Positions 6,028 to 34,730 of a stretch of DNA of 64,000 nucleotides are shown here, one piece after another. Under the pieces are notes generated by a model. That model ran no database searches, was not told where the DNA came from, and was given only the letters and a program-made list of their open reading frames with translations. The DNA is taken from positions 32,001 to 96,000 of IMG/VR virus record IMGVR_UViG_3300046710_000261; one strand, written 5' to 3'. Origin of the DNA: a virus (Duplodnaviria > Caudoviricetes). Position numbers and translations under genes: made by a program. How positions within the stretch are numbered: position 1 is the stretch's first letter; each line of letters begins with the position of its first letter.

Positions 6028-7281
6028 TTATTCTTCTCCCATTTTATCTTTCATATTATGGATAGGGATTATTCTATCAAGTATCTTCGCAGTAGGTTCA
6101 ATCGCCACTTCAATAATTTTCGCATCCTTATACGCATCAGGACATTCATCCAAAGTTCCTTGTCCTACAGAAGTTGAAAAAATCCCTTGCATATCAGACT
6201 TGAATTTGTTCAAATCCAATTCCCTTTTCGCTCTTGATCTTGAAAAAAGTCTTCCCGCCCCATGAGGCGCAGAAAAATTCCATTCAGGATTTGACTTTCC
6301 TTCACAAATCAAAAGTCCATCCCTCATATTGAAGGGGAGAATAAAAAATTCCCCTCTGTAAGAGCGAACAGAACCTTTTCTGATAATTTTGTCTTGAGGG
6401 TCAATATAATTATGAATGGTCTCAATTATCTGAAATTTTTTCAGGAAACCAGGAAGTAAGTTCAAAATCTCTTTCATGATATATTCTCTATTTACTTTCG
6501 CATATTGTTGCGCAAAATACATATCATCCAAATATCCTTCCACATTTTCCCCTTCAAGATATTCCAATCCCGTAACCTTTTTGTCAATCTGTAAAGATTT
6601 TTTCAAATCGTAAATTCTTTTTCCAATTTCCGATCCGTTTTTCGCGGTTCTTTTGATTTCTTCAACCCCCGCATCCAATAAAACTTTTCTGGATTTTCCA
6701 TCCCTTCCCGCCGCAACTTTCTGCCAGTATTCGCAAACCTTATACCCAAAATTCCGTGATCCAGTATGGATAGTCAACCAAAGGTCTTCATTGAAATCTG
6801 ATCTTCCGATTTCAATGAAGTGGTTCCCCCCTCCCAAACTTCCGATAGAATTTATCGCATAGGTCAAATCAATTCCAATCTTTTTGCAAGTCTGCTCAAA
6901 CCATTCATAGGAATATCCATCTTTCCATACAAAATCCTTCTTCATATGGATTATTCCCCTTTGATGAACATTCATTCCGAAAGGTACTTTTTGTCTGATA
7001 GAATTATCCAATTCAGGAAAATTGATTTCAACCTTTCCGATATTCGCAGACAACATTCCACACCCAATATCGACACCTACGATTGAAGGAATAATTTTCT
7101 CGCTTGATTTCATGGTGAAACCAATACAAGAGCCTTTTCCAGAATGACAATCGGGCATGATTTTTACGGGGTTCGTAAAAGCACAATGGTTTATCATAGA
7201 AATAATTTGAGCAATACATTCAGGCTCTACATGGTCAATCATTATGTCAGCATTCGTGTATTTTCCATTCAAAGTTATCAT
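6028..7281 (-). CDS. rtcB: RtcB-family RNA 3'-phosphate/5'-OH ligase
   Basis: MPDCH, VGVDIGCGM, GSLGGGNHFIE, HTGSR, HNY, PHGAGR and DECPDAYK motifs. Confidence 0.95.
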   Translation of the reverse strand: MITLNGKYTNADIMIDHVEPECIAQIISMINHCAFTNPVKIMPDCHSGKGSCIGFTMKSSEKIIPSIVGVDIGCGMLSANIGKVEINFPELDNSIRQKVPFGMNVHQRGIIHMKKDFVWKDGYSYEWFEQTCKKIGIDLTYAINSIGSLGGGNHFIEIGRSDFNEDLWLTIHTGSRNFGYKVCEYWQKVAAGRDGKSRKVLLDAGVEEIKRTAKNGSEIGKRIYDLKKSLQIDKKVTGLEYLEGENVEGYLDDMYFAQQYAKVNREYIMKEILNLLPGFLKKFQIIETIHNYIDPQDKIIRKGSVRSYRGEFFILPFNMRDGLLICEGKSNPEWNFSAPHGAGRLFSRSRAKRELDLNKFKSDMQGIFSTSVGQGTLDECPDAYKDAKIIEVAIEPTAKILDRIIPIHNMKDKMGEE

Positions 7282-23900: not shown

Positions 23901-23929
23901 ATTATAGCATATTATGGATTTCATGTCAA
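23901..23929 (-). promoter_or_regulatory. sigma70 promoter
   Basis: TTGACA-17-TATAAT with TG extension, immediately after the mom stop codon. Confidence 0.8.
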
Positions 23930-24579
23930 GAGATTTCTTTTGGGTATGGCAAAACTTTCCATTTCAAGAATTTTCGGTCTTCTTTATCTGTAAAATAGAC
24001 ATATCTGTTCTTTTTAGAACGATAGACAACCCTCATTTTCTCTTTATCTCGTAACTCTTTTGGAATGCTCCTATGGTCTAAATCTCCAAAAGTGTAATCT
24101 TTGAAAGGAATTGATGTTCCTGTAAATATCCAATTAGTGGCCTGATAAACTTTCCCCGAATGCCCATATTTAGTATCGGCATAACTTACGAGAATTGTTC
24201 CTTTAGGAATTGTCCTTAAAACCCATCCGATAAATCGGCTTTCAGAATTTTTGGGACATTCATCTGCCATCCATAAACGATTTAGTTCAAAAACTTTTTT
24301 TGCTCTTTCTTCTCCCGCCACACCTTTAATCAATGTATGAGATGCTGGTTTACCTATGGTAAGAACGCCCACTAATCTATCTTCTAAAAAGGCACCGAAT
24401 GCCCAACTTGTAGGTGCCTTTCGATGAAGGTAGTGTTCTCTTACCACCATTTCCATTGCTACCTTATAATCTATTTGCTTAAATTTTAGTTGGAGCGGAG
24501 AGGTCGGACATGAACCGCCATCTTTCTTCTGGAAGGAAGACTGTTCTACTTGAACTATCACCGCTGTATTATTTTCCAT
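23926..24579 (-). CDS. Mom-family (GNAT-fold) DNA adenine modification enzyme
   Basis: HYLHR, VGVLTIGKPAS, ELNRLW, KNSESRFI and LVSYAD..GHSGKVYQATNW motifs typical of Mom-like proteins. Confidence 0.85.
   Translation of the reverse strand: MENNTAVIVQVEQSSFQKKDGGSCPTSPLQLKFKQIDYKVAMEMVVREHYLHRKAPTSWAFGAFLEDRLVGVLTIGKPASHTLIKGVAGEERAKKVFELNRLWMADECPKNSESRFIGWVLRTIPKGTILVSYADTKYGHSGKVYQATNWIFTGTSIPFKDYTFGDLDHRSIPKELRDKEKMRVVYRSKKNRYVYFTDKEDRKFLKWKVLPYPKEIS
24491..24564 (-). ncRNA. degenerate tRNA-Gly(TCC)-like cloverleaf embedded in the mom coding sequence
   Basis: GCGGTGA..TCTCCGC-T-CCA acceptor; GTTC/GAAC D stem with a GG-less 5-nt loop; TCTTC/GAAGA stem with CTTCCA loop; GGCGG-TTCATGT-CCGACC T arm. 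Confidence 0.75.
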
Positions 24580-24613: not shown

Positions 24614-25750
24614 TTATTTCCATTCTTGATCTAATAATAAATCTTCTCTTCTCAAATCAAAATATTTCTTTGCTATCTCTGGATACTTTTCTTCCATTTT
24701 TTTAAGAGCATTTATTTCGGGATTTCGCTTCGCCTCTGCCTGAATAATACAATACTGTCTGAAACTTTTTTTCATGTAGTTTGGTACAAAATTACACCAT
24801 GTTTTTATTGTTTGATATACATCTCTATAAGGACCATCACACTCTTTATATCGCATAATATAAGGAAGACATCCATATTCCATGAGGATTTTTATTCTTT
24901 CAAATACATCTGTAATATCTTGTTCCCAAAACTCTTCATCGAATCGGTTATTTCTATCAAATCCACAGAAAACATATAACTTCGTTCTGCGTTTGGGATT
25001 TACATATTTTCTCCACATGCGGAGTTGTTTGATTATTGTTTCTTTGTCTTCAATATTATCAAAAGCAAAAATATAATCACCAAGGTATTTACAAGAAGAT
25101 ATAACTTTGGCCTTTTCCTCTGTCATCATTCTAATATCCATGCCTTGTTTGAATTGAAACGGATAACCTGTTTCAATGAGTTCATCGAAAACCTCGCGCC
25201 ATCTTGAATATCCCAAAATATTATCATCCCATAAAGATATTTTCTTTCTTGAAGGATCAAAAAATTCTTTTACATGGGCATGAAAAAACACTTTATCATA
25301 TTTCTTATTGACACAAAATTCACACTTGCGAAAACATCCTCTGGTTGTAAAGCCAATGGAATAGTCTTTATAATATTCAAGGCGTATTCTTTCTAATCCT
25401 TTTGTTTCCATTATTTTTACCCAATTATCATATAGATGATAGTCGGGTATATGATGTTCAATTTCATCAGGCAGATTTGGTGCGCTGTCAAAGAAAAAAC
25501 CTGTTCCACCATGTATTGTTTTTTTCAAAATACTTTCATCGAGAATGGTTCCAGTAAGAATTGTATCTGTGAATGCTTTTGATATATAAACCAAATCATA
25601 ATTATCAATGGTGTTATAATTTAGGAGCAGTTCTGTATTATCCCCCAATTCTTTATGATAACCAGATAATTTCATACAAGCAAGATTAGGAAAAGAATGG
25701 CCTTTTCTTCTTATAAGATCAGCGTCAATGATACCTATGCTTTTACTCAT
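24614..25750 (-). CDS. radical SAM protein (phage-associated family)
   Basis: PNLACMKLS N-terminus, TTRGCFRKCEFC, DDNI and QGMDIR motifs. Confidence 0.88.
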   Translation of the reverse strand: MSKSIGIIDADLIRRKGHSFPNLACMKLSGYHKELGDNTELLLNYNTIDNYDLVYISKAFTDTILTGTILDESILKKTIHGGTGFFFDSAPNLPDEIEHHIPDYHLYDNWVKIMETKGLERIRLEYYKDYSIGFTTRGCFRKCEFCVNKKYDKVFFHAHVKEFFDPSRKKISLWDDNILGYSRWREVFDELIETGYPFQFKQGMDIRMMTEEKAKVISSCKYLGDYIFAFDNIEDKETIIKQLRMWRKYVNPKRRTKLYVFCGFDRNNRFDEEFWEQDITDVFERIKILMEYGCLPYIMRYKECDGPYRDVYQTIKTWCNFVPNYMKKSFRQYCIIQAEAKRNPEINALKKMEEKYPEIAKKYFDLRREDLLLDQEWK

Positions 25751-33111: not shown

Positions 33112-33288
33112 TTAATTCCTCTCTTCAATGAGATATTTGTCTACTAATTGGTCTATACTTTCCTTTTTCATCATTGGTTTCATTCCCTTCATTCCACACT
33201 TTGGACAACTGCTTCTATATGATGAAAATTCAGATTGTAATGTATGACCGCAATGACTACATTTAAATTCATTTTTATGTGTTTCCAT
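33112..33288 (-). CDS. 58-aa zinc-ribbon protein with C-terminal DKYLIE tag (not in ORF track)
   Basis: Manual translation METHKNEFKCSHC...CPKC...KKESIDQLVDKYLIEERN; TAATG-coupled to cca. Confidence 0.65.
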   Translation of the reverse strand: METHKNEFKCSHCGHTLQSEFSSYRSSCPKCGMKGMKPMMKKESIDQLVDKYLIEERN

Positions 33289-34730
33289 TATCGTGATTCT
33301 CCATTTTTTACTAATTGATGAGAATAATAGTCTATAATCAGTTTGTCAATTTCCTTTTCATCGGTAATGCCGTGATCTAAAACATATTCGGTTACATACT
33401 TTATTATCTCACCGACCTGTTTCCCTGGTTTCATTCCAGTAAGTTTCATGACATTATCGCCACTTACTATCTTCACCGTATTATTTATGACTTTCTGCCC
33501 AAACTTTTCCTTCGTCTCTATTGCCTTGTTCACGATTTCTTCAAATTCGTGACTATCCATAAATTGCTCACCACGGGATGCCCAGTCTGCTTTAGCAACA
33601 GCAACCAGAACGTCCCAATTCTTATCTGTGGCAATCTTGAAAATTTTGCTTGGTTTCATATCCATTATTTTATGAAACTTCATATGATTAGCAACAGCAA
33701 AGAAAAGTTTTTCTTTTTCATCATTGCTGAACTTCAATCTATCACCAATCTGGTTGACTAAATCTATACCCTTCTCTTCATGCTCAAGGTATGTTGGTGT
33801 TCCATCTGGTTTTCGAGCAAATGTAATACCCTTGCCTACATCATGCAATAAAATTGCTATATTGATAAGAGGGTCTTTGAGTTTGTTTGCTTTCAATGCT
33901 GATAAAATATGTTGCCAAACATCACCTTCGGGGTGATGTTCTATTTTCTGTTCCATTCCTTTCAGTTTGGTAATTTCGGGAAGTATCAATTCCAATATTC
34001 CCATTTCATCAAGATAGATAAGATACTTTGCAAATTTATCTCCTGTCTGTCCCGCTGCTTTCCATATTTCGTCCTTTACTCTTTCCACAGAAAGTTTCAA
34101 TATGTTTGGTGCTAAATCTTTAACTGCTTTGCTTGTTTCGGGGTCTATTTCTAAATCAAATCTGGATGCAAATCGCGCTGCCCTCATCATACGAAGATGG
34201 TCTTCACCAAATCTGTCTCTTGGATTTCCAACAGTTCTCAAAACTTTATTTTTTATATCCTTCTGCCCGTCAAAGTAGTCAATGATATTTCCATCTTTAT
34301 CAACTGCCATTGCATTGATAGTGAAATCTCTTCTTTTTGCATCTGCTTCAAATGACACAGCGACCTTCACGCTCTCGGGTCGTCTGCCATCGAGATATTC
34401 TCCATCTTCTCTAAATTGAGCAACTTCAAAACTATGCCCCTCTTCTCTGACAACTACTATACCAAAATCTTTTGATTTACCTATGTCATATGTTTTGTAT
34501 AGTTTTTGAAGTTCTTCAATGGGCATGTTGGATGCTATATCAATATCATGTGGATCTATGCCCAAGATAATATCTCGCACACTTCCGCCCGTTATGTATG
34601 CTTCATAACCTTTAGCAGTAATTTTTTCTAAGACTTTGATGGCGGCACGGAGCATAGAATTAGATTTGACATATGCTTGCCATTTTTTGAGTTGTTCTGC
34701 TTCAAATAGATAAAATCGTCTGAAGTCCAT
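33288..34730 (-). CDS. cca: class II CCA-adding tRNA nucleotidyltransferase with HD domain
   Basis: GGSVRD, DIDI, RRDFTINAM, EDHLRMMRAARF, HHPEGDVWQH and LLHDVGK; flexible loop DGEYLDGRRP; lacks the PAP signature. Confidence 0.9.
   Translation of the reverse strand: MDFRRFYLFEAEQLKKWQAYVKSNSMLRAAIKVLEKITAKGYEAYITGGSVRDIILGIDPHDIDIASNMPIEELQKLYKTYDIGKSKDFGIVVVREEGHSFEVAQFREDGEYLDGRRPESVKVAVSFEADAKRRDFTINAMAVDKDGNIIDYFDGQKDIKNKVLRTVGNPRDRFGEDHLRMMRAARFASRFDLEIDPETSKAVKDLAPNILKLSVERVKDEIWKAAGQTGDKFAKYLIYLDEMGILELILPEITKLKGMEQKIEHHPEGDVWQHILSALKANKLKDPLINIAILLHDVGKGITFARKPDGTPTYLEHEEKGIDLVNQIGDRLKFSNDEKEKLFFAVANHMKFHKIMDMKPSKIFKIATDKNWDVLVAVAKADWASRGEQFMDSHEFEEIVNKAIETKEKFGQKVINNTVKIVSGDNVMKLTGMKPGKQVGEIIKYVTEYVLDHGITDEKEIDKLIIDYYSHQLVKNGESR

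Follow-up and report, generated by a model that had tools for sequence, protein, structure and literature searches.

A conserved tRNA-Gly-like RNA family at the 5' ends of phage mom genes: a candidate glycyl donor for a DNA-modifying enzyme

Introduction

Why would a phage carry the likeness of a glycine tRNA, in frame, within the opening codons of the DNA-modification gene mom? To our knowledge, Mom is the sole enzyme so far shown to modify DNA with an aminoacyl-tRNA. The enzyme of phage Mu takes its glycine from Gly-tRNAGly, as the sequence-only reading of this DNA had correctly stated, and every isoacceptor works (Silva et al. 2026, PMC13219725). The locus joins a member of this enzyme family to an RNA that resembles its glycyl donor, and the question is whether the resemblance is real, whether it is under selection, and what it might do for the gene that holds it.

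The window, the whole stretch of 64,000 nucleotides that was analysed, comprises bases 32001-96000 of a 155,948-base IMG/VR virus record that is ~70% complete. ARAGORN finds 36 tRNA genes in the record, canonical tRNA-Gly(GCC) and tRNA-Gly(UCC) among them, and the same phage also codes for a CCA-adding enzyme, RtcB, a ribonucleotide reductase and a primase. Within the window, ARAGORN called only a tRNA-Thr and a tRNA-Ser, and the Gly-like element in mom was not called.

The mom gene and its cloverleaf

The gene and the parts of its element are located in Table 1. Residues 31-214 of the ORF match the Pfam family PF25680 (Mom) at 142.9 bits against a cut-off of 27.1 (1.4e-41), and the ORF matches the solved Mu Mom structure 8bv8 at E 1.5e-16. 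R101 and S114 are invariant in 51 Mom homologs and, in the alignment to 8bv8, fall on its ELNR and NSE(S/A)R motifs; from a 9-residue offset in numbering, we infer that they are the counterparts of Mu Mom R111 and S124. The gene starts at an ATG at 24577-24579, 15 nt 5' of the first nucleotide of the element (G1), with an in-frame stop another 6 nt upstream, and the Mom domain begins one codon past the element's CCA. The AlphaFold model agrees with this boundary, giving a pLDDT above 90 from residue ~31 on, with the first strand at residues 32-35, and a pLDDT below 50 for residues 1-26, which are predicted to be disordered. A gap of 34 nt on the minus strand separates mom from the genes upstream, with which it is apparently co-transcribed, and neither a promoter-like nor a terminator-like site was found in that gap.

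Table 1. Positions of the mom gene, its product's domains and its tRNA-like element in the window
Feature	Position	Strand	Basis
Mom-family ORF, 217 aa	23926-24579	-	ORF list; Pfam PF25680; start/stop scan; 8bv8 match
Mom GNAT domain, aa 31-214	23938-24489	-	Pfam envelope; AlphaFold; invariant columns; 8bv8 alignment
N-terminal 30 codons (MENNTAVIVQVEQSSFQKKDGGSCPTSPLQ)	24490-24579	-	AlphaFold; L173 frameshift; clade frame differences
tRNA-Gly-like element, 74 nt	24491-24564	-	sequence; Rfam tRNA; family model R2
Acceptor stem	24558-24564 paired with 24495-24501	-	sequence
6-nt anticodon loop CUUCCA	24530-24535	-	Rfam alignment: one loop position deleted
Bulged A, T stem, between pairs 51:63 and 50:64	24504	-	Rfam alignment: insertion
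U73	24494	-	sequence
Encoded CCA	24491-24493	-	sequence

The element occupies nucleotides 16-89 of the mom ORF, codons 6-30, in frame, where the sequence-only reading had drawn a cloverleaf whose bases stand as first noted. Read 5' to 3', it consists of the acceptor strand GCGGUGA, the linker UA, a D arm (GUUC and GAAC around the loop AAGUA), AG, the anticodon arm (UCUUC and GAAGA around its loop), AAGAU, a T arm (GGCGG and CCG(A)CC around the loop UUCAUGU, with the bulged A in brackets), the second acceptor strand UCUCCGC, U and CCA. The anticodon loop holds the glycine anticodon UCC at 24531-24533, and the stem that closes it covaries in the family. The glycine identity nucleotides G1-C72, C2-G71, G3-C70, C35, C36 and U73 are all present. 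Alongside them the copy fails a series of canonical tRNA features: the 7-nt anticodon loop, G18G19 in the D loop (which has 5 nt and no GG), T54-Psi55-C56 and A58 in the T loop (which has no A58 equivalent) and a regular 5-bp T stem. The fifth acceptor pair is a U5.U mismatch.

Taken alone, the window copy is borderline, since the generic tools hardly see it. The Rfam tRNA model RF00005 aligns to it over model positions 1-70 with 17.8 bits, whereas gathering requires 29 (across all families, E is 0.11-0.56), ARAGORN misses it, and although the cloverleaf is the minimum-free-energy fold, it is only weakly better than shuffles (z -1.49). Matches to serC-leader, CRISPR-DR and mir-1249 on the same bases lie far under their gathering scores and were disregarded. 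By generic tRNA tools alone, the window copy would have been dismissed.

A covariance model built from its relatives gives a different answer. Model R2, made from 44 gapless 76-nt copies with the window copy and those of loci L173 and L091 left out, scores the window copy at 75.4 bits (E~1e-16), and the window's true tRNAs at 43.1 bits (tRNA-Thr) and 19.2 bits (tRNA-Ser). On the family model R1, whose training included the window copy, that copy outscores the phage's own tRNA-Gly genes by more than 30 bits. By the measure of these relatives, the resemblance of the window copy to a tRNA is more than chance.

A family of elements tied to mom

The relatives were recognized through the protein. 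In an alignment of 50 Mom homologs (47-91% identity), the N-terminus is near-invariant and reads 'GD-S..VEQ..FQ..DGGS-IPTSPLQL', which resembles GGSxPTSxLQ, in line with the GGSxPTxxLQ likeness that had been anticipated for such homologs. Back-translated, this conserved peptide is the D arm, the anticodon loop, the T arm and the N73-CCA end of a tRNA. Retrieval from viral, genome and metagenome collections gave 170 homologous Mom loci, or 171 with the window, and the element stands at the identical place in 141 of them, as 52 distinct sequences with the window counted; the 91%-identical relative L173 was added afterwards as the 53rd distinct copy. Among the 134 loci found by a strict pattern, the offset from CCA to the Mom domain is identical in 119. 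The tRNA finders do see many of these copies: ARAGORN labels them tRNA-Gly(tcc), or gives them a two-base 'tc' anticodon that reflects the 6-nt loop, and 10 of 20 representatives reach the Rfam tRNA gathering score, at 29.5-44.7 bits. The glycine-specific matches that the sequence-only reading had proposed to look for at the 5' ends of other mom genes were found.

In a quick maximum-likelihood tree of 116 Mom domains, the genes that bear the element are spread over several clades, with ~5-6 state changes; Mu, a Firmicutes pair and a clade of Acidobacteriota prophages are without it. One locus, L094, was scored as lacking it, but its contig is cut and the 3' end of the element is still visible. 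No tRNA-like match was obtained in Mu mom or in the mom region of Exiguobacterium phage vB_EauM-23, and Moms without the element begin directly at the domain. The 292 Mom matches from cultured phages begin between query residues 30 and 35, save for a single one that begins at residue 21. By these matches the element is essentially absent from isolated phages, which explains how it escaped notice.

These comparisons make the window element a member of a conserved tRNA-Gly-like RNA family that is physically tied to the 5' ends of mom genes. An attP site or a decayed local tRNA was also considered and was ruled out, since all the copies belong to a single covarying family that was inherited along with mom in divergent Mom clades.

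Selection on the RNA

The substitutions among the copies point to the RNA as the conserved object. When the 53 distinct copies are aligned with MAFFT, standard pairs make up 95.9% of cells, a share that drops to 46-52% once the partners are displaced by 1-3 columns. The same displacement lowers the covariation score from 0.47 to ~0.1, and none of 500 shuffles matches the observed values. Both sides have changed in 16 of the 22 pairs and all four helices covary; the anticodon stem has been rewritten repeatedly around a fixed loop (UCUUC/GAAGA, CCCCU/AGGGG, GAUGGC/GCUAUC, CUAAC/GUUAG and others). At four-fold third codon positions the mean entropy is only 0.61 bit for the element, compared with 1.80 bit for the Mom domain that follows it in these sequences (Mann-Whitney p=2e-4), and the synonymous sites that do vary in the element change jointly with their pairing partners. 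The minimum-free-energy folds of the relatives are cloverleaves with the bulge and the 6-nt loop, mostly at z -2.2 to -4.3. As judged from these patterns of substitution, the element is a structured RNA under purifying selection.

What is kept within the fold is specific to glycine. The GCG/CGC acceptor ends are found in 52-53 of the 53 distinct copies, an encoded CCA in 51, and U73 in 48, with A73 in the other five. Every anticodon loop contains CC, 44 copies have the loop N-U-U-C-C-A, and all 53 have NCC in a 6-nt loop, so that the anticodon-like triplets are solely UCC, GCC, ACC and CCC, all of them glycine, rather than the random isotypes that had been named as the mark of a decayed tRNA. 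These conserved positions match the glycine identity elements listed in PMC9976931, and the identity set and CCA end first read in the window copy hold for the family. A GG in the D loop is present in only 15 of the 53 copies and occurs together with U55, and copies without it mostly have G55 (Fisher 3e-8, with kinship ignored), an association that suggests a co-adapted elbow.

The deformities fall into two classes. All those listed by the sequence-only reading are present in the window copy, and two of them, the 6-nt anticodon loop and the bulged purine of the T stem (53 of 53 copies), are family traits. The lack of a D-loop GG and the U.U mismatch are not; the mismatch, the 5-nt D loop and the odd T loop are confined to the window and L173. 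The window copy is the family's most degenerate at the elbow, where the D loop is short and the T loop odd, and its stems are conserved.

This degeneracy raises the possibility that in the window's lineage the element is a decaying relic that now supplies just a start codon and an N-terminal linker, while the phage's canonical tRNA-Gly serve Mom. The generic tRNA score of the window copy is the lowest of the copies checked (17.8 bits, against the range of the 10 passing relatives), its acceptor, D loop and T loop are aberrant, canonical tRNA-Gly(UCC) and tRNA-Gly(GCC) are encoded in the same genome, and the element of L173 carries A33, with 8 nt in its T loop and 4 nt in its variable loop. U33 and the T loop, which are otherwise conserved, have drifted between the window and L173, a hint that this lineage is under looser constraint. 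The same comparison speaks against decay of the fold. The two elements differ at 5 of 74 nt, all in loops. The rest of the gene diverges by 11.9%, a rate that predicts 5.2 changes among the 44 paired nucleotides; there are none, which indicates that the stems are still constrained. With the identity nucleotides, the bulge and the CCA intact as well, and with the high score on the family model, a mere relic seems improbable, although the copy may be partly relaxed or in decay.

Translation through the element

The Mom frame is open through the element in every distinct copy. Most copies have a start codon 7-15 nt 5' of G1, and in eight distinct lineages the sole start is an AUG within the D loop, preceded by GGAGG, GGAGA or GGUGA at acceptor positions 3-7. 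In the window there is no ATG, GTG or TTG between the element and the conserved Mom residues, which rules out an internal start past the CCA, and in the fused forms generally no start codon was found between the CCA and those residues. Because the frame is kept open, ribosomes from the upstream start or from the D-loop AUG can reach the Mom domain, and the passage of translation through the element that the sequence-only reading had supposed is supported on both counts, by the open frame across the family and by the lack of a later start in the window.

Could the peptide itself, with its GGSxPTSPLQL motif, be the conserved unit, the tRNA likeness being incidental or the remnant of a tRNA-derived attachment site? 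Its columns are conserved at 90% or more in 51 homologs. Its synonymous sites, however, are frozen and covary with pairing partners, and the reading frame is not constant. In the window clade, whose elements have 74 or 77 nt, the 5' half up to the D loop is read in another frame than in the clades with 76 nt, each with a start codon in the right frame. In L173 a 1-nt deletion in the variable loop is offset by a 1-nt insertion in the T loop, which turns DGGS into MAVH and then restores the frame. Two lineages do not fuse the element to the protein at all: in L165 a 21-nt spacer with GAGGAA separates it from mom's own ATG, and in L174/L175 it ends 5 nt upstream of that ATG, so that the motif is missing from the protein. 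P0103 (266 aa) supplied an unfused copy. The peptide is also predicted to be disordered, and element-free Moms do without it. As for an attachment site, the copies are far closer to each other than to the phage's own tRNA-Gly. On these grounds, from the frozen, covarying synonymous sites and the local frameshifts to the unfused copies and the disorder prediction, a functional N-terminal peptide motif is ruled out, and the whole reading, attachment site included, is exceedingly improbable. The always-open frame, the two unfused lineages and the predicted disorder together identify the RNA as the selected unit and the N-terminal peptide as a passenger written by the RNA element.

Possible functions of the element

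The conserved glycine identity suggests a role in the chemistry of Mom. In such a role, the element would be excised from the message, charged by GlyRS, kept from EF-Tu and the ribosome, and used to give glycine to Mom. RNase P would cut part of the mom transcripts at G1 and the 3' end would be trimmed to the encoded CCA; the freed RNA of ~74-76 nt would be glycylated by the host GlyRS; the deformed anticodon loop and T stem would hold it off the ribosome and EF-Tu; and Mom would consume the charged RNA as a dedicated glycyl donor for N6-adenine modification. In the fused genes excision would take away the start codon, so each transcript would serve as either enzyme or donor, and the cloverleaf would also restrict the output of Mom, a toxic enzyme. 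EF-Tu reads the T-stem pairs 49-65 and 51-63, where tRNAGly species of S. aureus escape it (PMC9976931), and a bulge between pairs 51:63 and 50:64, together with the 6-nt loop, is suggestive of evasion of EF-Tu and the ribosome. Between autoregulation and an excised donor, the unfused variants and the conserved GlyRS identity set speak rather for the donor.

Several observations stand against such a donor. A donor tRNA need not sit in or against the start of mom, and the tight coupling therefore fits a cis role at least equally well. Excision ruins the message in the fused genes. The phage already has canonical tRNA-Gly(UCC) and tRNA-Gly(GCC), and Mu manages with host tRNA. Moreover, RNase P or GlyRS may handle the window copy poorly, given its U.U mismatch, 5-nt D loop, missing A58, low Rfam score and marginal fold. 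On balance, the excised donor is the best reading, with about an even chance of being right.

The strict coupling to the start codon supports an effect on translation in cis, as the main or a second function of the fold. In its pure form, the fold would stay in the mRNA, neither excised nor charged, as a translational operator that controls Mom initiation. It might hide the Shine-Dalgarno sequence or the AUG, or be bound by Mom, which recognises tRNAGly acceptor ends, or by GlyRS, in the manner of the thrS operator or of the Com-controlled stem-loop of Mu. The position of the element speaks for this: it always abuts or contains the start, whether that start lies just upstream of G1 or, as in the eight lineages, within the D loop behind an SD-like sequence in the acceptor strand, and even the unfused copies finish 5-21 nt ahead of the ATG. 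Mu mom, too, is controlled at translation by a structure in its mRNA (PMC6483171). Nevertheless, a full cloverleaf that keeps a co-varying elbow, the CCA, the discriminator and C35-C36 goes beyond what an operator needs, an internal CCA is not chargeable, and why GlyRS should regulate a phage gene is not apparent. Measured against a thrS-like operator, the position at or over the start fits, but the gene is that of Mom and not of GlyRS. A purely cis-acting operator, the main rival of the excised donor, is accordingly rated unlikely, if far from implausible.

A further possible role would be that of a processing or decay signal, in which RNase P cuts the polycistronic message to tune Mom and the freed RNA has no function. 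The apparent co-transcription of mom with its upstream genes across the 34-nt gap and the conserved cloverleaf with its stacked acceptor and T arm would suit it. RNase P ignores the anticodon arm and the glycine identity, though, and both the conservation of that arm and the strictness of that identity (NCC only, GCG/CGC and U73) would go unexplained, leaving a signal of this sort with little probability.

The excised donor and the effect in cis can also be combined. Each transcript would then have two possible fates, either contributing the disordered N-terminus of Mom or yielding an excised, GlyRS-charged, non-ribosomal glycyl carrier that Mom uses, with the ratio set by the cloverleaf. In some lineages that ratio would depend on a hidden SD or AUG, in others on the loss of the start codon upon excision. 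This arrangement is put forward tentatively, its chances falling somewhat below even; if it is true, the same nucleotides encode an enzyme and its macromolecular co-substrate.

Relation to known systems

tRNA-shaped folds in messages have precedents. The thrS operator of E. coli mimics an anticodon arm only and regulates the synthetase's own gene, and tRNA-like structures are processed from longer RNAs in the case of mascRNA, from MALAT1, and of tRNA-mRNA co-transcripts such as thrU-tufB. Like the mom element, these place a tRNA-shaped fold in an mRNA beside a start, where it may be bound by a tRNA-binding protein or cut by RNase P, but none is known to lie in frame inside the gene of the enzyme that consumes the matching aminoacyl-tRNA.

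The closest precedent concerns mom itself. The embedding itself was already reported in 2011: McMurdie et al. (PMC3146451) noted a 76-bp tRNA-Gly-like 'pseudo-tRNA' in the first 150 bp of a mom homolog in the ssrA islands of Dehalococcoides. According to that paper's description, on which the match rests, it too is a tRNA-Gly-like cloverleaf of ~76 nt that has a DCC anticodon, lies within the 5' end of a Mom-family gene on its coding strand, and is conserved from copy to copy. The report, limited to integrative islands of one bacterial genus and one fosmid, proposed no function, and it appeared before Mom was known to use Gly-tRNAGly. The present element, in contrast, is found in a large, tRNA-rich phage, is widespread in viral mom genes, covaries, and carries conserved deformities. 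The embedding has thus been known since 2011 but has stayed functionally unexplained, and the window element is a further member of that kind.

Two further systems bear on its possible role. For its FemXAB peptidoglycan ligases, S. aureus makes non-proteinogenic tRNAGly that escape EF-Tu through altered T-stem pairs 49-65 and 51-63 and supply these aminoacyl-tRNA-dependent transferases rather than the ribosome (PMC9976931). The Mom-linked element has its bulge in that region of the T stem too, and it likewise keeps glycine identity; the staphylococcal RNAs, however, are free-standing, of canonical length and with 7-nt loops, whereas the Mom-linked element lies in or abuts the ORF of the enzyme that would use it. 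Mu Mom (8bv8; PMC13219725) belongs to the same family, the inferred counterparts of both its essential residues are invariant here, and its donor is tRNAGly, but its gene has no tRNA-like element, relies on host tRNA and is under Com control. Silva et al. 2026 (PMC13219725) mention no phage-encoded donor. In full-text literature searches, no paper was found that links a mom-embedded tRNA-Gly-like element to Mom's Gly-tRNA chemistry, and the link appears to be unpublished.

Implications

The 2026 study assumed that Mom draws on the host tRNAGly pool; a conserved, deformed tRNAGly in or against the starts of many viral mom genes suggests instead that these phages bring a donor of their own, shielded from EF-Tu and the ribosome. 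The loci also carry a warning, that tRNA finders and gene callers mis-annotate them. If the donor role is true, the element would add a second, independent case to the non-proteinogenic tRNAGly and be a rare example of dual coding of RNA and protein on the same strand, and it would explain the 2011 'pseudo-tRNA' annotation, functionless for fifteen years. It would also provide a ready co-substrate candidate for reconstituting the Mom-like enzymes of uncultured phages.

Genomic context of mom

The gene for a radical SAM protein is the immediate 5' neighbour of mom, and because the gap between it and the mom ATG is only 34 nt, the two genes are probably co-transcribed. The neighbouring protein is without a Pfam match at E 0.01. 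In the close relative L173, whose Mom is 91% identical, the 5' neighbour of mom is not the same gene. At the opposite end, window 23901-23929 (-) holds an exact match to the sigma-70 consensus, TTGACA and TATAAT spaced by 17 nt plus a TG upstream; it overlaps the final mom codons and is directed toward the next downstream gene.

The phage also carries genes for a CCA-adding enzyme and an RtcB RNA ligase, and its tRNA cluster includes canonical tRNA-Gly(GCC) and tRNA-Gly(UCC). Another ARAGORN call, at C1:128534-128605 of the phage's own genome record, has a 2-base anticodon, 'tg'.

Coordinates of the radical SAM gene, the CCA-adding enzyme, RtcB and the tRNA cluster
Feature	Position	Strand	Evidence
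Radical SAM protein	window 24614-25750	-	phrog_9298, 5e-51; CxxxCxxC motif CFRKCEFC
CCA-adding enzyme	window 33288-34730	-	
RtcB RNA ligase	window 6028-7281	-	
tRNA gene cluster, >30 genes	own genome C1:124418-139383		

Additional matches and variants of the element

Two homologous loci hold an additional tRNA-Gly-like match to R2, the covariance model of the element family, 210-280 nt 5' of the mom-fused copy: L146:843-914 (49.4 bits) and L159:878-949 (41.3 bits). ARAGORN makes no tRNA call for either. The L146 match is in frame within a 206-aa upstream ORF, where the peptide reads ...ADVVQAEQVTSRDKMPYQIEPSAPI..., and the end of this ORF falls inside the D arm of the copy fused to mom. On a Puniceicoccaceae MAG contig, a weak family-model match of 34-35 bits (L090:3679-3753), with no ARAGORN call there, lies ~250 nt 3' of a distant Mom-like match (31% identity) and may represent an element copy that is displaced or on the 3' side.

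At the discriminator, A73 replaces U73 in five distinct copies of the element (L008, L042, L098, L099 and L100); the L098 element ends in CAA, not CCA; and UCC is replaced by GCC in L100 and by ACC in L159 and L165. These variants may track the GlyRS type of the host.
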